A stretch of 64,000 nt of DNA, from the sequence record OZ335963.1; one strand, given 5' to 3'. Origin of the DNA: a phage. The position numbers and the translations under genes were made by a program. Positions 568-52,555 of the stretch are shown piece after piece; the stretch's first letter is position 1; every line of letters starts with the position of its first letter. The notes beneath the pieces were generated by a model. The model ran no database searches. It saw only the letters and a program-made list of their open reading frames with translations, and was not told where the DNA came from.

Positions 568-1723
568 TTAACTGATCTAGGTCAGTTTCTAAATCAGCTG
601 CTGATTTACTTTTACTTTCTGGAGATTTAAATTTTTCAACCTTTGAGTTAATCAATTCATCAACTTCAGCTTCAACAATTTCATTACTATCAATAGCACC
701 TAACTGATAAGCGCGTTTAATAGCATCTCGGAATGGCTGATGCTTAAATAAAGGACCCCAGAATGTAGTGCAGTTGGTATCTTTTGCACGCCAAGATTTT
801 TCTTCGCGAATCATCTCGCCGGTTTCTTCATCAAGAAATTCACGAGCATACCAGCCATTTTTAGGTTTTACCACAAATCCTAATTCAAGAGCCATATCTA
901 ACAATCCAGAATAAGGATCGATACCACCGTCAAATTTAACATCAATAAAGAATTTACTTTTTTCTTTAACGGTACGAGATTTTTCTACATTTAGAACAAA
1001 CTGATACCCCTGAAGATCTGAACCATCTTTAATCTGGCGCTTACCGATAATGAATACGGTATCAGCCGAATACATTACGCCTGTACCACCTGTCATCACA
1101 GTTTTACTAAACATTTCAATTGTTTCAATTGTATGGTTAACCGCAACGCATGGAATGTTTTTAATACTAAAATAAGGAGTAACAATACGGAATAATGACT
1201 TCAGTGATTTAGCACGAGTCATATCTGCCACAGATTTTTCATTCAAGGCATCTTCCGTTTCTTTCTTAGAAGCCATATTACCGATTGAGTCGATGAATAC
1301 AATAACTTTTTCACCGCGCTCAATAGCTTCAAGCTGATTCACCATATCAATTTTCAGCTGTTCAACTGACTGGATTGGTGTATGAATTACTCGTTCCGGG
1401 TCAACTCCCATGGATCGCAAATAAGCTGGAGTAATACCAAATTCGCTATCATAGAATAGACATACCGCGTCAGGATATTTGTTCAAATACGCCGCAACCA
1501 TAGTCAAAGACATATTTGATTTAAAGTGTTTAGAAGGACCTGCAAAAATGGTTAAACCAGACTGCATACCACCATCAATCGCACCAGAAATAGCGATATT
1601 AAGCATTGGGATTTTTGTACGGATTACATCCTTTTCATTAAAGAATTTAGATGTAGTCAGTTCAGCAGTCATTTTAGAAGTGGAAGCTTTAATCAAACGG
1701 GATTTTAAATCTGCAATAGACAT
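542..1723 (-). CDS. uvsX: UvsX RecA-like recombinase
   Basis: 393-aa product, near full-length match to remembered T4 UvsX (MSIADLKSRLIKAS...); RecA-type ATPase core. Confidence 0.95.
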   Translation of the reverse strand: MSIADLKSRLIKASTSKMTAELTTSKFFNEKDVIRTKIPMLNIAISGAIDGGMQSGLTIFAGPSKHFKSNMSLTMVAAYLNKYPDAVCLFYDSEFGITPAYLRSMGVDPERVIHTPIQSVEQLKIDMVNQLEAIERGEKVIVFIDSIGNMASKKETEDALNEKSVADMTRAKSLKSLFRIVTPYFSIKNIPCVAVNHTIETIEMFSKTVMTGGTGVMYSADTVFIIGKRQIKDGSDLQGYQFVLNVEKSRTVKEKSKFFIDVKFDGGIDPYSGLLDMALELGFVVKPKNGWYAREFLDEETGEMIREEKSWRAKDTNCTTFWGPLFKHQPFRDAIKRAYQLGAIDSNEIVEAEVDELINSKVEKFKSPESKSKSAADLETDLDQLSDMEEFNE

Positions 1724-4199: not shown

Positions 4200-4262
4200 T
4201 GATAGTTGTATAGTACCACAGAGGAACAGTCTTGTAAACAGTTTTGTGAAAAAATTTTTAAT
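4200..4262 (-). promoter_or_regulatory. T4-type early promoter (UP element, GTTTAC -35, extended -10)
   Basis: Minus-strand reading AAAAATTTTTTCACAAAACTGTTTACAAGACTGTTCCTCTGTGGTACTATAC; about 60-bp module repeated at 31441 and 46308. Confidence 0.7.
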
Positions 4263-31440: not shown

Positions 31441-31502
31441 TTGATAGTTGTATAGTACCATAAAGCTTTATGCTTGTAAACCGTTTTGTGAAAAAATTTT
31501 TG
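31441..31502 (-). promoter_or_regulatory. T4-type early promoter (repeat of the module at 4200 and 46308)
   Basis: AAAAATTTTTTCACAAAACGGTTTACAAGCATAAAGCTTTATGGTACTATAC on the minus strand. Confidence 0.7.
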
Positions 31503-41465: not shown

Positions 41466-41520
41466 GTAATTATGAATATACTATCACAATTTTAGGAGAA
41501 AGTAAACTGCTATTTACCTT
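41466..41520 (-). promoter_or_regulatory. early promoter
   Basis: Minus-strand GTTTAC...TGTGATAGTATATTC. Confidence 0.5.
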
Positions 41521-41812
41521 TAATTACTTTAGCTGCTTCGATAGCCGCTTGCTGAAGGTCGTCCATAGACATACCGAATTTAGAAGCAAAGTTATCAATT
41601 TTCTTTTCGACAGCATTCAAAGGCTTGGCCTGTTTACCTTCATTAGCGCCAGGAAGAGCGAGAATACGCTCTTTGTCAATATAAAGGCTTACAAGTTTCT
41701 TACGGTCTTTATCGGACAAATCATGAAATGAATGAGCCTTTTTATTTATAGCGGCTTCTAATTTACTCGCAGTTACGCGGGCTTCAGTGATAAATTCTTG
41801 ATAGGTTTTCAT
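41510..41812 (-). CDS. ipII: internal protein II
   Basis: 100 aa with capsid targeting sequence MKTYQEFITEA. Confidence 0.85.
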   Translation of the reverse strand: MKTYQEFITEARVTASKLEAAINKKAHSFHDLSDKDRKKLVSLYIDKERILALPGANEGKQAKPLNAVEKKIDNFASKFGMSMDDLQQAAIEAAKVIKGK

Positions 41813-41853
41813 ATGTTTCCTTTAAATGTAAATAGGCCTAAGTATCGGCCTTA

Positions 41854-42429
41854 TTAATTACCACGGGCTGCATTAGCAACGGCATAAGCATACTGAACAT
41901 TAGCGTCTTTAAACGTACCTTTAGAGGTATCTATTTCTGCCTTAAAGCCGCCTTTAGCCATAACATCGGCGAATTCTTTACGGAAAGCCATTGCATCAAG
42001 ACCTTTCCATGTTGATTTGTGCTTGGCGAATTCAAGACCAGCGTAGTTGACAGCTTTAGCCAATTTATTATCAATGACCCATTTACCGGCTTTAGGCACA
42101 AACTTCGGACCTTTTTGTTTAGAGAACAGTTTTAAATTCCAGCGACGAAGATCACTATCGGCTTTAACAAAAGCTGCGTCTAAGTTACTAGCAACAACAT
42201 CTTCAATATGAGCAAATTTAAGTCCGTCAACTTCAATATTTAGATCGTTACGCCAGCGAAGTCCTTCCCAAGCGAAAGCTTTAAAATCAGAAGCTTTTGT
42301 GGCTAGATATCGTTCAAGCGGAGCAGTTTTAGGGTCAAAGCCGTTTCCTCGGTAAGTCCACTCATCTTTATTAATGCCTTTGGCCTTTTCCGCAGAAGCT
42401 TCAGCGATAAATTCTTTATACGTTTTCAT
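41854..42429 (-). CDS. ipIII: internal protein III
   Basis: 191 aa with capsid targeting sequence MKTYKEFIAEA. Confidence 0.85.
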   Translation of the reverse strand: MKTYKEFIAEASAEKAKGINKDEWTYRGNGFDPKTAPLERYLATKASDFKAFAWEGLRWRNDLNIEVDGLKFAHIEDVVASNLDAAFVKADSDLRRWNLKLFSKQKGPKFVPKAGKWVIDNKLAKAVNYAGLEFAKHKSTWKGLDAMAFRKEFADVMAKGGFKAEIDTSKGTFKDANVQYAYAVANAARGN

Positions 42430-46307: not shown

Positions 46308-46372
46308 GTTGATAGTTGTATAGTACCATGGAAGAACAGGGATGTAAACAGTTTTGTGAAAAAATTTTTAAA
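46308..46372 (-). promoter_or_regulatory. T4-type early promoter (third copy of the module)
   Basis: AAAAATTTTTTCACAAAACTGTTTACATCCCTGTTCTTCCATGGTACTATAC on the minus strand. Confidence 0.7.
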
Positions 46373-48072: not shown

Positions 48073-48148
48073 TGGTCGAGGCAGTAGGGATCGAACCTAC
48101 GACCTAGGACTTAGAAGGTCCTTGCTCTTCCTTCTGAGCTATGCCTCG
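48073..48148 (-). tRNA. tRNA-Arg (UCU)
   Basis: Hand-folded cloverleaf: acceptor CGAGGCA/TGCCTCG, anticodon loop CUUCUAA, T-arm GGTTCGATCC, CCA encoded. Confidence 0.8.
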
Positions 48149-48152
48149 TATT

Positions 48153-48227
48153 TGGCGGACATGCATGGATTCGAACCATGGACCAATTGATTAACAGTCA
48201 ACTGCTCTACCACTGAGCTACACATCC
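48153..48227 (-). tRNA. tRNA-Asn (GUU)
   Basis: Hand-folded: D-arm TAGCTCAGTGGTAGAGC, anticodon loop CUGUUAA, T-arm GGTTCGAATCC, CCA encoded; acceptor has two G-U pairs. Confidence 0.65.
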
Positions 48228-48231
48228 AAAT

Positions 48232-48318
48232 TGGTGGGGAGTGATGGAGTCGAACCACCCGAGTCGCAATGACAATGGATTTACAGTCCACACCGCTACC
48301 TCTACGGGATAACTCCCC
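48232..48318 (-). tRNA. tRNA-Tyr (GUA)
   Basis: Hand-folded: acceptor GGGGAGT/ACTCCCC, anticodon loop CUGUAAA, long variable arm, CCA encoded. Confidence 0.65.
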
Positions 48319-48331
48319 TTAATTCTTAATT

Positions 48332-48406
48332 TGGTGGCCCTGGGTGGAATTGAACCACCATCTGGCGATTATGAGTCGCTTGCTTGAACCTTCCAGCTAC
48401 AGGGCC
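48332..48406 (-). tRNA. tRNA with CAU anticodon (Ile or Met)
   Basis: Hand-folded: acceptor GGCCCTG/CAGGGCC, anticodon loop CUCAUAA, T-arm GGTTCAATTCC, CCA encoded. Confidence 0.7.
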
Positions 48407-48407
48407 T

Positions 48408-48483
48408 TGGTGCTGATTGACGGAATCGAACCGCCGACATCCTCATTACAAGTGAGGTGCTCTACCTACTGAGCTAAATCAGC
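48408..48483 (-). tRNA. tRNA-Thr (UGU)
   Basis: Hand-folded: acceptor GCTGATT/AATCAGC, anticodon stem CCTCA/TGAGG, loop CUUGUAA, CCA encoded. Confidence 0.8.
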
Positions 48484-48488
48484 AAAAC

Positions 48489-48578
48489 TGGCGGAGGCGA
48501 TAGGATTTGAACCTATGAGTCGCCGGAGCGACTGCCGGTTTTCAAGACCGGTGCATTAAACCACTCTGCCACGCCTCC
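48489..48578 (-). tRNA. tRNA-Ser (UGA)
   Basis: Hand-folded: acceptor GGAGGCG/CGCCTCC, anticodon loop CUUGAAA, long variable arm, CCA encoded. Confidence 0.8.
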
Positions 48579-48580
48579 AG

Positions 48581-48654
48581 TCTCCGCGGCAGGATTTGAA
48601 CCTGCGACATTCTGCTCCCAAAGCAGACGCTCTACCAAACTGAGCTACACGGAG
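48581..48654 (-). tRNA. tRNA-Pro (UGG), CCA not encoded
   Basis: Hand-folded: anticodon stem TCTGC/GCAGA, loop UUUGGGA; 3' end abuts tRNA-Ser with 2-nt spacer. Confidence 0.8.
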
Positions 48655-48664
48655 TAAATTAAAT

Positions 48665-48738
<74 letters not shown>

Positions 48739-48743
48739 AAATT

Positions 48744-48830
48744 TGGTGCGAGAAGTGGGACTCGAACCCACAAGGAAATCATTCCGCAGCATTTTAAGTG
48801 CTGTGCCTTTACCAATTTGACCATTCTCGC
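48744..48830 (-). tRNA. tRNA-Leu (UAA)
   Basis: Hand-folded: acceptor GCGAGAA/TTCTCGC, anticodon loop CUUAAAA, long variable arm, CCA encoded. Confidence 0.8.
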
Positions 48831-48831
48831 G

Positions 48832-48904
48832 CTGGGAATAAAGGACTCGAACCTTTGCATCTAGCAGTCAAAGTGCTATGCCTTACCAACTTGGCTAATT
48901 CCCA
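48832..48904 (-). tRNA. tRNA-Gln (UUG), CCA not encoded
   Basis: Hand-folded: acceptor TGGGAAT/ATTCCCA, anticodon loop CUUUGAC; 3' end 1 nt from tRNA-Leu 5' end. Confidence 0.8.
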
Positions 48905-48990: not shown

Positions 48991-49506
48991 TTAAAGCAAA
49001 TTAAACATTTTAACGGTCGGTAAAACAATTTCTTCTTCGATATAAGCAAATTCTACATGTTCAACTACACGCAAGAAATCATATTCGCAGTATTCAGAAG
49101 CATGACCAAGAATATCAATGAGGCCTTCAGATATCTTATTACCATTCACAAAGAATAAGTCAAATACGCGTTCTTCATCTTCTTCGGATTTATTACCAAG
49201 GTCAACTTCTATATCAAAGACCTTTTTAATGAATTCTGGATAAAGTTGGTCTGAGAACAGTCCTTCAACCAAATATTCATATATAAAAAGCTCTTGCTCG
49301 CTGAATAAACCATTGCCGCAATAACGGTCAGCTTTGGTGCTAGAATGACGGCTCTTAAACTTCTTCAAAAGATATTTAAATTGTTGGAGCTCATGCTCTT
49401 CTACGCCAAACAGTGTTTTAGTTTTATAGTTGTCACCATCATTTTCATAGGTAGTGACATCAATTACGTAACCCTTAGGAATTGTGCTGCCTAAACGAAT
49501 ATACAT
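48991..49506 (-). CDS. hypothetical protein
   Basis: 171-aa acidic ORF between tRNA cluster and ipI. Confidence 0.55.
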   Translation of the reverse strand: MYIRLGSTIPKGYVIDVTTYENDGDNYKTKTLFGVEEHELQQFKYLLKKFKSRHSSTKADRYCGNGLFSEQELFIYEYLVEGLFSDQLYPEFIKKVFDIEVDLGNKSEEDEERVFDLFFVNGNKISEGLIDILGHASEYCEYDFLRVVEHVEFAYIEEEIVLPTVKMFNLL

Positions 49507-49802
49507 TTGCTCACCATATTAATGTAAGTATATTTAATACATTCAAGACCCAAAGGATTCTTGAAAATATCATATTCAAGAGGACCTTTTTCTGTTTCAA
49601 TAAAGAAATCAAAATTTACTGTATTAAATTTACGGTCTTCCTTTACTAATTTAACCTGTGAAGACGAACGGTCAATGTAAACCTTTTCAACTTCAAAACA
49701 CGTTAAAATGTCATAATCATCAATCAAGGCTTTAGCTGCTTCTTGATCATATTTATATCCATTTTCAATGGATGATACTTTCGCATAAAGAATCATTATC
49801 AA
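49491..49802 (-). CDS. hypothetical protein
   Basis: 103-aa ORF. Confidence 0.5.
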   Translation of the reverse strand: MIMILYAKVSSIENGYKYDQEAAKALIDDYDILTCFEVEKVYIDRSSSQVKLVKEDRKFNTVNFDFFIETEKGPLEYDIFKNPLGLECIKYTYINMVSKCIFV

Positions 49803-50218
49803 CCTTCATCAATAATAGTATGCGTATTGGCATTTACAATTTGCCACCAATCAAAGCGATTGGAACCATACATCGGTTTGTTTTCATTTTCTTTGATGAT
49901 GTCACGGAGTTCATCTTCAGTGGCGGCTTTCGCGATTAAATCAGCATATCCACCACGAGGATAATAATTATCACCTGCAAAAAGTAAAAAGTTTGGTTTA
50001 ATGTTATTGAACTCTTCAAGAGTAATAACTTTTCCTGACGGTTGAACAATCTCTACATATTTATATCCCAATTTTTGAGCCGCATCTACTGCTTCAAGCA
50101 AAGTATCATGAGCCCATCCAATTTGACAACCTGGCTTTTCAGATGGATTAGCCTGATAATCCGCATACACTTTATACATTCTATTCACCTTTAGAAATTT
50201 TATCCATAACAATAGCAA
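49799..50218 (-). CDS. hypothetical protein
   Basis: 139-aa ORF, probably starting at MYKVYADYQ. Confidence 0.5.
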   Translation of the reverse strand: MLLLWIKFLKVNRMYKVYADYQANPSEKPGCQIGWAHDTLLEAVDAAQKLGYKYVEIVQPSGKVITLEEFNNIKPNFLLFAGDNYYPRGGYADLIAKAATEDELRDIIKENENKPMYGSNRFDWWQIVNANTHTIIDEG

Positions 50219-50366
50219 TTAAACCAATTAAAAATGCTACTACAAGTGAAAACACATTTTCTGCTGTAGTCAATAATCCGCATATAAATCCAACAAACAT
50301 TGAAAAACTAAAAGCGGAAGCAGAAATTGCAATAGCAACATTTCGAATTAATTCACAACGTTTCAT
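50181..50366 (-). CDS. small membrane protein
   Basis: 61 aa, two hydrophobic helices; GGAG Shine-Dalgarno; early promoter upstream. Confidence 0.5.
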   Translation of the reverse strand: MKRCELIRNVAIAISASAFSFSMFVGFICGLLTTAENVFSLVVAFLIGLIAIVMDKISKGE

Positions 50367-50380
50367 TTTATTCTCCTCGG

Positions 50381-50445
50381 TAGTTGATAGGGTAATAGTA
50401 TCACAACTAAAACCCTATGTAAACAACTTTGTGAAATATTTATTA
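50381..50445 (-). promoter_or_regulatory. early promoter
   Basis: Minus-strand GTTTACATAGGGTTTTAGTTGTGATACTATTACC. Confidence 0.6.
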
Positions 50446-50730
50446 CAAAAGATTTTTAGCAATAATCTTGAGATGTGCCGCAGAAATGTGTTTAGCTTTA
50501 AACAACGCAGTTTCTTCAGCAGGAGAGATAATGATTGTAGCACCATCCTTTTTAGCAGACCACCCATCACCTAGGTAAACAGTACCTTTGATTTCTTCGC
50601 CATCAACCAGACTAATCATTGGTTTACCTTCTCGTCCTTTATTTGCTTTAATAACTTCAGAAGTAAGAGTAGCTTCGGTAATAGTAGAAACTGGGGTAGT
50701 TGTAGAAGTAAATTCTTTAAATGTTTTCAT
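50443..50730 (-). CDS. ipI: internal protein I (IPI, anti-restriction)
   Basis: 95-aa precursor with 19-residue targeting sequence MKTFKEFTSTTTPVSTITE before Ala20; T4 position upstream of 57B. Confidence 0.75.
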   Translation of the reverse strand: MKTFKEFTSTTTPVSTITEATLTSEVIKANKGREGKPMISLVDGEEIKGTVYLGDGWSAKKDGATIIISPAEETALFKAKHISAAHLKIIAKNLL

Positions 50731-50744
50731 TTTATTTTCCTAAT

Positions 50745-50810
50745 TAATTTTGATGAGATAATGGTATCACAACTAAAACCCTGTGTAAACAGCTTTGTGA
50801 AATTATTTTA
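50745..50810 (-). promoter_or_regulatory. early promoter (duplicated leader module, copy 1)
   Basis: Minus-strand GTTTACACAGGGTTTTAGTTGTGATACCATTATC; flanking 5' leader duplicated at 51075. Confidence 0.6.
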
Positions 50811-51060
50811 AATCTTCTAATCGTTTCTTCATCTTAGAACCGTTCTTAGCGATTTCGCCTGCATCAGAGCATAATGCTAAAAGAGCTTTAACTTTAGTTT
50901 GGTCTCCTTTAAAAGATGAAGGATCGACTGCAGCAGCAAGTTCTTTAATACGAGAGAAAAGACGCTCAGCTTCAGCTAAAGCCATTCCAAGCTTTACTTC
51001 CATACCGTGGGAAGATTCAGTAATAGTAGTTTTTGTAGCAAACTCTTTGAAAGTTTTCAT
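50803..51060 (-). CDS. internal-protein-like (capsid targeting sequence)
   Basis: 85 aa starting MKTFKEFATKTTITE; 5' leader and first codons duplicated from ipI. Confidence 0.55.
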   Translation of the reverse strand: MKTFKEFATKTTITESSHGMEVKLGMALAEAERLFSRIKELAAAVDPSSFKGDQTKVKALLALCSDAGEIAKNGSKMKKRLEDLK

Positions 51061-51074
51061 TTTATTTTCCTAAT

Positions 51075-51829
<755 letters not shown>

Positions 51830-51830
<1 letters not shown>

Positions 51831-52555
51831 TATAGTACCTTTAGTGTATTTTTAATTTTAGAAAAAAGTTCTTCAAGAGAACCATCGTTTGTAATTACTA
51901 AATCGCCATCACGAATTGGCAATCCAGCTTCTGTAATATGAGTATCATTGGATTTTTGACCAGGACGAACTACATGAATTACTGTAGCACCCATCGCCCT
52001 AGCCGCATCCATTTCATGATCTTGACGAGTATCAGGAACGATATAATAATCATAGCCTGAGTTAAATTTATCAAGATAATCTAAAGCAAATAATTTTACC
52101 CAATACATGCGGTCGAAGTTATTAACAATCAAATCCGTACCTAGGGCTTGCATCAGACGACGGACTGACCATTGATCTTCAATATTATTTATAACATCAG
52201 CAATCTTGTTAAATGCTACGAAAGTAACTGATTCTTTTCCTTCGTCATCAAAAACAAACACGCCTTTAATTGGGCTTTTACTATTAAGATAGCAAAATGC
52301 TTGTTCCATAATCGTAATTACTTCTAATTTAGTCAGATTTAAATTAGTCTCACGATCATAGTCAATTCCTTCAAACTCTTTACGAGTTAAGCAAGGATAG
52401 TCAGTGTTTGCAGCAAACACGCCCCATGCATAAGCCAATGCATCTTTAATAGGACCAGCAAGTTGATATTTAGCTGCAGAATAATTATTCATGATAAAAT
52501 CTGCAGTAGTATCTTTTCCACTACGCTTTACACCACTTAAAAAGATTAGTTTCAT
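51830..52555 (-). CDS. 1: deoxynucleoside monophosphate kinase gp1
   Basis: 241 aa; P-loop GVKRSGKDT; matches remembered T4 gp1 start MKLIFLSGVKRSGKDTTADFI. Confidence 0.93.

Follow-up and report, generated by a model that had tools for sequence, protein, structure and literature searches.

The window, the whole 64,000-nt stretch of phage DNA analysed here, comes from a Tequatrovirus (T4-like phage). Its closest DNA matches were Tequatrovirus genomes at about 97% identity, none identical among the matches listed. In the part studied here, the gene order is T4-like and every gene lies on the minus strand. The region from 57B to trna.4 is a polymorphic internal-protein (IP) locus, present here as 57B-ip5-ipI-trna.4. 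The initial annotation had placed two ORFs in it, at 50443-50730 and 50803-51060, and both were found there on the minus strand. The features are the following:

51830-52555, minus strand: gene 1 (dNMP kinase)
51588-51830, minus strand: 57A
51133-51588, minus strand: 57B, Acb1 anti-CBASS family (Pfam Acb1, 2.6e-60); conserved left boundary of the IP locus
51061-51148, minus strand: promoter-leader block, copy 1
50803-51060, minus strand: ip5, 85-aa precursor (phrog_3499; annotated Ip5 in RB14, T2 and T6)
51016-51060, minus strand: ip5 leader, codons 1-15, reading MKTFKEFATKTTITE
50806-51015, minus strand: predicted mature Ip5, 70 aa, starting SSHG, 7.5 kDa, pI 9.2
50731-50818, minus strand: promoter-leader block, copy 2
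50443-50730, minus strand: ipI, 95-aa precursor (Pfam IPI_T4, PDB 2JUB, phrog_4363)
50674-50730, minus strand: ipI propeptide, 19 aa, ending ITE
50446-50673, minus strand: mature IPI*, 76 aa
50367-50437, minus strand: promoter block, copy 3, promoter part only (similarity about 50384-50437)
50181-50366, minus strand: trna.4, 61-aa hydrophobic protein (phrog_1692, 6e-35); conserved right boundary of the IP locus
downstream of trna.4: more small ORFs and, at 48073-48904, ten tRNA genes in a block
41854-42429, minus strand: ipIII, 191 aa, leader MKTYKEFIAE (six-frame motif scan); second IP locus
41510-41812, minus strand: ipII, 100 aa, leader MKTYQEFITE (motif scan); second IP locus

Both boundary genes carry the same annotation, 57B and trna.4, in RB14, T4, T2 and T6. 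The trna.4 product has no capsid-targeting leader and is not an internal protein. At the second locus, an early promoter lies upstream of ipIII.

The ipI and ip5 genes

The 95-aa gene had been proposed as an IPI homologue, and the evidence supports a stronger statement. Its product matched Pfam PF11634 (IPI_T4) at 2e-53 (178.7 bits, cut-off 25), with residues 20-95 covering model positions 1-76, which is the whole mature domain; it also matched phrog_4363. The same residues were identical at 75 of 76 positions to PDB 2JUB, the 76-residue mature T4 IPI*, with I66 in place of V66. Because of this identity and the Pfam match, the gene is ipI itself. The proposed precursor architecture –a 19-aa propeptide ending in ITE followed by a 76-aa mature protein– was confirmed as well, since the 2JUB chain begins at ORF residue 20 (ATLTSE...) and residues 17-19 are ITE. 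The T4 ipI gene agrees with it in length, 19-aa propeptide, and position upstream of trna.4. However, it directly follows 57B, whereas in the window ip5 sits between the two. At 99% identity to the T4 protein, the IPI* of the window probably inhibits the GmrSD of E. coli CT596.

The 85-aa product matched phrog_3499 ('internal head protein') at 1.2e-49, with residues 1-85 aligned to profile positions 1-85. The same gene is annotated Ip5 in RB14, T2, and T6; the RB14 annotation reads "similar to RB15 T6 T2 RB51 RB70 Ip5, RB69ORF127c", and UniProt Q38378 is the Ip5 of RB70. The protein of the window is 92-100% identical to the Ip5 of T2, T6, RB14, RB15, RB51, and RB70, and 99-100% identical to those of T2 and T6. 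It had been described as a protein with a related leader and an unrelated helical body. This agrees with the BLASTP alignment to IPI, limited to residues 1-22/1-26, and with the AlphaFold2 model, a two-helix hairpin (H17-44 and H54-84) of moderate confidence (pLDDT 71) built on a shallow alignment. The term IPI-like was rejected for the ORF past its leader, where BLASTP similarity to IPI ends.

The coding sequence of ip5 is under strong purifying selection: compared with the copy in VR26 (Gaprivervirus), dN/dS was 0.057 at a dS of about 1.4. Compared with T6, there were eight synonymous changes and no nonsynonymous ones, and a Shine-Dalgarno sequence (AGGA) stands 8 nt 5' of the ATG. These features indicate that ip5 is a real gene, and the substitution patterns argue against an untranslated ORF, the case that the initial annotation had singled out as damaging to its reading.

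The family extends well beyond the closest relatives. In tblastn searches, the 70-residue body was at least 90% identical in 269 phage records, and a relative of about 54% identity appeared in another 226, where it lies in the other IP locus by the lysozyme gene. A distant relative in phage vB_Eco_Geo, for instance, is a 93-aa protein with the leader MKTYSEFLSE, and its gene comes right after that for lysozyme. When 1.84 billion cluster representatives were searched exhaustively with HMMER, only three clusters (50% identity) were recovered, and every sequence retrieved from them starts with a targeting-type leader (MKT/MQT). Judged from these sequences, Ip5 is an independent, widespread internal-protein family whose body is old and evolves separately.

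The searches for known domains and folds gave no assignment for Ip5. Against Pfam, there was a sub-threshold match to DUF7890 alone (E = 0.076; 13 bits, cut-off 26), and the best hit of a sequence search of the PDB had E = 0.76. A Foldseek search of the PDB with the model returned nothing at E <= 0.001, just generic or designed helical hairpins. The rows for the LSD1 tower domain and a small terminase were given no weight, the helical hairpin being a generic fold.

Ip5 presents sequence features of a T-even internal protein. In T4, the first ~10 residues of IP propeptides target the proteins to the capsid, into the prohead core; targeting depends on leader positions 4 and 7, the propeptides are removed by the prohead protease gp21, and ~360 copies of each IP per head are ejected along with the DNA (PMC9026906). 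The Ip5 leader, MKTFKEF, fits the capsid-targeting motif MKT(Y/F)(Q/K)EF and has F4 and F7. In all six frames of the window, the motif occurs in four ORFs only: ipII, ipIII, ip5, and ipI. A candidate gp21 site, I-T-E at residues 13-15, closes the leader. All Ip5 relatives keep (I/L/M)-x-E within their first 10-17 residues: close sequences have the E/SSHG junction in common, distant relatives have L-x-E at residues 8-11, and VR26 has M-T-E. Two more (L/I)-x-E motifs, LAE at 28-30 and IKE at 38-40, lie in predicted helix 1, so the mature N-terminus could differ from SSHG. The predicted mature protein is small and basic; its pI of 9.2 compares with 9.0 for IPI*, 9.7 for IPII*, and 9.6 for IPIII*. 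It also sits in an IP locus, between 57B and ipI/trna.4. A literature search for virion proteomics of Ip5 found none, the name being swamped by inositol phosphates.

The repeated promoter-leader block

The promoter, Shine-Dalgarno sequence, and first codons of ip5 and ipI had been reported as near-identical over some 70 bp. The repeat is real, but longer than that: the repeat search aligned 50696-50818 with 51026-51148 (123 nt, 85% identity ungapped, 330-nt spacing), and the shared block spans about 140 nt, including the final codons of the gene upstream, the early promoter, the 5'UTR, the Shine-Dalgarno sequence, and the leader to the cleavage codon. The initial annotation had proposed to align the two 5' blocks; a gapped alignment of the two whole units confirmed the repeat, with 33 of 34 positions identical from the -10 element to the ATG. 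Thus, the notion of promoter, Shine-Dalgarno sequence, and leader as one shared 5' module was borne out. The count of two copies was incomplete, as a third one, limited to the promoter part, precedes trna.4 (about 50384-50437).

The edges of the block are well defined. Homology already begins within the upstream gene, with its four final codons (GAT TTA AAA TAA), and both 57B and Ip5 terminate in D-L-K. It ends at GAA, the codon for the E of the ITE cleavage site, and the gene bodies are at chance level. Within the leader codons, 38 of 57 positions are identical between ip5 and ipI, one 12-nt indel included; the ipI leader holds the additional 12 nt, flanked by CTAC repeats. Repoila and co-workers are said to have described, in 1994, an 11-residue motif and a 70-bp block at IP loci.

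Each of the three copies gave one sigma-70-type promoter match with a TG-extended -10:

Copy 1, minus strand: UP/-35 element TTTCACAAAGTTGTTTACA at 51114-51132; extended -10 TGATACTAT, with TACTAT at 51091-51096; 13-bp hairpin across spacer and -10 at 51081-51110 (-18 kcal/mol, z = -2.9); 5'UTR with Shine-Dalgarno AGGA
Copy 2, minus strand: -35 TTTACA at 50784-50789; -10 TACCAT at 50761-50766; no hairpin (z = +0.66)
Copy 3, minus strand: -35 at 50418-50423; -10 at 50395-50400; hairpin at about 50387-50418; 5'UTR unlike those of copies 1 and 2

Copy 2 is a mosaic with a spacer like that of copy 3 and a 5'UTR like that of copy 1, and it forms no hairpin because of this composition. On these matches, ip5, ipI, and trna.4 each have a T4-type early promoter of their own, as far as promoters can be predicted, and each gene is preceded by a Shine-Dalgarno sequence. 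The genes ip5 and ipI also have a common 5'UTR, Shine-Dalgarno sequence, and IPI-type capsid-targeting leader.

For late transcription, we found no canonical late promoter adjoining ip5 or ipI, the nearest upstream being TATAAATA at 52186-52193, and no terminator-like site in 49700-51900. Late expression of ip5 and ipI for prohead assembly may come from read-through from that upstream promoter, or from lasting use of the early promoters.

The anatomy of the window matches exactly that of the T-even IP loci (Repoila, Tetart, Bouet, Krisch, EMBO J 1994), and nothing essential differs from these loci as later articles describe them, with IP genes that have a common N-terminal leader and are each flanked by a conserved early-promoter block. 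The PeSL cassettes, known from RB49/phi1 and further T4-like phages (Arbiol et al. 2010, Comeau et al. 2014), are similar to the blocks of the window in being promoter-containing intergenic blocks with a stem-loop that border small accessory ORFs and are substrates for recombination. However, each PeSL copy combines a sigma-70-like early promoter with a G+C-rich stem-loop terminator, whereas in the window three of three copies have the promoter, and only copies 1 and 3 have a hairpin, which is AT-rich. Unlike in PeSLs, this hairpin overlaps the spacer and -10, is missing in copy 2, and has no T-run terminator after it. The window blocks are thus not PeSLs, in line with Arbiol et al., who regarded the IP-locus elements, with their T4 early promoters and weaker AT-rich stem-loops, as analogues of PeSLs rather than homologues. 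Petrov 2010 does not mention IPs.

The IP locus across phages

Comparison of the locus across T-even genomes, another step that had been suggested, showed that the boundaries 57B and trna.4 are constant and that the enclosed cassettes vary. The phages compared have six different architectures within these boundaries:

T4: 57B-ipI-trna.4
T2: 57B-ip5-ip7-trna.4
T6: 57B-ip5-ip6-trna.4
RB14, RB3-type phages, and the window: 57B-ip5-ipI-trna.4
T4_ev240: the arrangement of the window and, in addition, a 74-aa gene (leader MKTYQEFIAE)
VR26: 57B-ORF-ip9-ip5-ip6-trna.4

The slot of ip5 directly downstream of 57B is the same in the window as in T2, T6, RB14, RB15, RB51, and RB70. Its downstream partner differs: ipI in the window and in RB14/RB3-type phages, ip7 in T2, and ip6 in T6. 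The RB14 locus, annotated 57B, Ip5, ipI, and trna.4, is 96.9% identical to that of the window. An ip5-to-ipI junction query was covered to at least 80% in only 12 records, and the T4-type 57B-to-ipI junction was found in 157. By these counts, the arrangement of the window is a minority one, yet it has been sequenced before.

The promoter of T4 ipI is the ip5 promoter of the window, so that in T4 the ipI coding sequence stands behind an ip5-type spacer. Therefore, the difference between T4 and the window amounts to exactly one unit of 330 bp. The crossover between them would lie somewhere within the identical stretch from the -10 to the ATG. The difference may reflect either gain or loss of the ip5 unit.

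Three modules –UP/-35 element, spacer, and 5'UTR plus leader– re-assort across phages. The UP/-35 element is near-constant in most copies and differs only upstream of trna.4 in T2, T6, T4_ev240, and VR26. Two types of spacer were observed, CTGATGAGGTAGTG, always after 57B, and AGGGTTTTAGTWGTG, after an IP gene. The 5'UTR plus leader falls into a type for the MKTFKEF genes (ip5, ipI, and ip7), a type for the MKTYQEF genes (ip6 and the 74-aa gene), and that of trna.4. Thus, T2 ip7 has the same 5'UTR and MKTFKEF leader as ip5 and ipI. The Ip5 body of VR26, from SSHG onwards, follows a 10-aa IPIII-type leader (MKTYQTFMTE), compared with the 15-aa IPI-type leader in the window; since the same body occurs with another leader, leader and body are separable modules joined at the cleavage site.

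Origin of the arrangement and role of Ip5

Our main reading, to which we give a probability of about 85%, is that of a polymorphic IP locus where both precursors are packaged, cleaved, and injected, Ip5* acts as a defence inhibitor, and recombination at the conserved blocks shuffles the cassettes. By analogy with T4 biology, the MKTF-EF leader would bring the Ip5 and IPI precursors into the prohead scaffolding core. Cleavage by gp21 after I-T-E would then yield the 76-aa IPI* and the 70-aa Ip5*, and several hundred copies of each would be injected with the DNA. IPI* would block a type IV restriction enzyme of the GmrSD type, which cleaves glucosyl-hmC DNA, as has been described for this protein, and IPs are regarded as diverse defence proteins with only the targeting sequence in common (PMC3012670). 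Ip5* is probably injected as well and would inhibit a host first-response defence stoichiometrically, the likeliest target being another GmrSD subtype. The conserved blocks would serve as portable homology, with unequal or inter-phage homologous recombination adding, removing, or swapping whole cassettes; the T4 locus would be that of the window minus one such 330-bp unit, and the shuffling would tune host range.

For the origin of the ip5-ipI pair, the initial annotation had favoured a local duplication, with the ipI cassette copied in situ (promoter, Shine-Dalgarno sequence, and leader) and the body of the duplicate then replaced by foreign sequence. The IPI-type leader of ip5 in this phage (MKTFKEF...TITE), which at the DNA level is the ipI leader minus 12 nt, fits such an event, as do the 5'UTRs of the two genes with their 33/34 identity. 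However, the Ip5 body is that of an old and separate family, at a dS of about 1.4 from VR26 and spread over three clusters at 50% identity. It occurs without ipI in T2, T6, and VR26, and in the last of these with an IPIII-type leader, whereas the 5'UTR and MKTFKEF leader on T2 ip7 point to a module common to several cassettes and not to a private duplicate of ipI. Moreover, ip5 directly precedes ipI in only 12 records against the 269 that have ip5 at 90% identity or more, and the relative of about 54% identity in the other IP locus (226 records) also speaks against a local origin. The duplication is thus unsupported and, in our view, quite improbable, and recombinational shuffling of pre-existing cassettes fits better with the sequences, since the body is old, is found without ipI and with another leader, and shares its 5' module with ip7. 

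The similarity of the blocks might also reflect nothing but the strong T4 early-promoter consensus, a functional convergence silent on descent or recombination. The UP/-35 element TTTCACAAARNTGTTTACA does recur elsewhere in the window, at three early promoters unrelated to these (4233, 31475, and 46343), and other early-promoter blocks in the window are already 51-68% identical to copies 1 and 2. Nevertheless, copies 1 and 2 are 82% identical to each other, which exceeds both chance and that generic baseline. Their identity, almost complete from the -10 to the ATG, extends into the untranslated leader and over 15 codons, sequence that is no part of the promoter consensus, and the spacer and 5'UTR types re-assort between phages as discrete modules. 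We rejected this explanation, which the identity of 5'UTR and leader effectively refutes and which we regard as barely credible. Returning to cassette shuffling, the conserved blocks offer 45-80 nt of near-identity, and T4 recombination proceeds readily even at microhomologies of 6-10 bp (PMC9391042); the simplest reading is therefore that cassettes are gained, lost, and exchanged through homologous recombination. Later articles (PMC2839356, PMC4122927) credit Repoila et al. 1994 with the idea of shuffling via conserved elements that contain promoters and lie at the two IP loci.

Regarding function, a different GmrSD is inhibited by each of Ip1, Ip2, and Ip3, with no cross-protection, and Silas et al. 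found no reproducible inhibition when ip4-10 were set against five further active GmrSD systems (PMC12373910). Judged from the numbering, ip5 was probably in that set, and because the screen gave no reproducible effect, the target of Ip5 need not be a common enterobacterial GmrSD cluster. The same result would fit a packaged Ip5 without an anti-defence role, which aids the scaffolding core or DNA condensation or acts on a non-restriction host target. Ip5 is small, basic, and predicted to be helical, and in IPIII mutants head assembly is slowed and bursts are smaller (PMC9026906). We nonetheless consider such a role unlikely: the T4 internal proteins of known function, three out of three, inhibit a GmrSD enzyme, T4 assembles normally without ip5, and the presence or absence of ip5 among otherwise near-identical phages is typical of host-range accessory genes and not of assembly factors. 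More speculative still is that the promoter-leader blocks form an integron-like system that excises and re-inserts single IP units, together with Ip5 as an injected inhibitor of a non-GmrSD defence; we find the combination doubtful. The mini-circles reported for PeSLs in RB49/phi1 are a precedent for such excision, and a non-GmrSD target of Ip5 would account for the lack of a target in screens of GmrSD variants.

The genes ip5 and ipI and the polymorphic IP locus have all been described previously. The window adds no new principle and provides one more example of the 57B-ip5-ipI arrangement of RB14/RB3-type phages. The locus represents a textbook hotspot of phage counter-defence, with interchangeable injected inhibitors behind a common expression and packaging module. 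GmrSD partners are available for Ip1-Ip3, and a phage that carries ip5 together with ipI, ipII, and ipIII could help find the target of Ip5.

Leader-bearing internal protein genes

Gene 57B (51133-51588, minus strand) matches the Pfam family Acb1, an anti-CBASS phosphodiesterase, at 2.6e-60, and therefore a further known counter-defence gene sits immediately upstream of the cassettes for injected proteins. In T4_ev240, a database record labelled 'evolved T4', the order 57B-ip5-ipI is followed by a 74-aa gene with the leader MKTYQEFIAE (1251-1475, minus strand), placed ahead of trna.4. Thus, this record carries three cassettes in tandem, with one block ahead of each.

The window contains a second internal protein (IP) locus.
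41510-42429, minus strand: ipIII and ipII

The ipIII gene (191 aa, leader MKTYKEFIAE) has its own early promoter, and a 41-nt spacer with a short GGCC hairpin separates it from ipII (100 aa, leader MKTYQEFITE). Since both are present, this is a phage with four leader-bearing genes.

Ip5 contains further (L/I)-x-E motifs.
50941-50979, minus strand: LAE (residues 28-30) and IKE (residues 38-40)

Both are conserved in the family and located within predicted helix 1. Because they fit the sequence rule of the prohead protease gp21, the mature form of Ip5 could be shorter than predicted.

Hairpins and early promoters

Folding of the three promoter copies, ahead of ip5 (copy 1), ipI (copy 2) and trna.4 (copy 3), gave hairpins across the spacer and -10 box in two of them.
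51081-51110, minus strand: hairpin of promoter copy 1
about 50387-50418, minus strand: hairpin of promoter copy 3

The copy 1 hairpin has 13 bp (-18 kcal/mol, z = -2.9). Copy 2 is a mosaic of the copy 1 and copy 3 types, and for this reason no hairpin spans its spacer and -10 box. The two hairpins are not terminators, since neither is followed by a T-run.

Three other early promoters are near-identical and form their own subfamily.
4233-4251, minus strand: early promoter
31475-31493, minus strand: early promoter
46343-46361, minus strand: early promoter

They share the sequence AAAAATTTTTTCACAAAAC(T/G)GTTTACA ... GGTACTATACAACTATCAAC, with pairwise identities of 68-78% over 95 nt, and precede small ORFs that are unrelated (126, 49 and 87 aa).

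tRNA cluster and adjoining ORF

48073-48904, minus strand: ten contiguous tRNA genes
48991-49506, minus strand: 171-aa ORF, flanked by the trna.2-like gene and the tRNA cluster

The cluster encodes tRNAs for Arg, Asn, Tyr, Met/Ile(CAT), Thr, Ser, Pro, Gly, Leu and Gln, and no homing-endonuclease gene interrupts it. Immediately past tRNA-Ile, T4 has the homing-endonuclease gene segB, whereas the window continues directly with more tRNA genes. The RB14 annotation also includes the Asn and Tyr tRNA genes. The 171-aa ORF corresponds by position and size to T2_138 of phage T2, and the T4 annotation of the same interval contains no counterpart.
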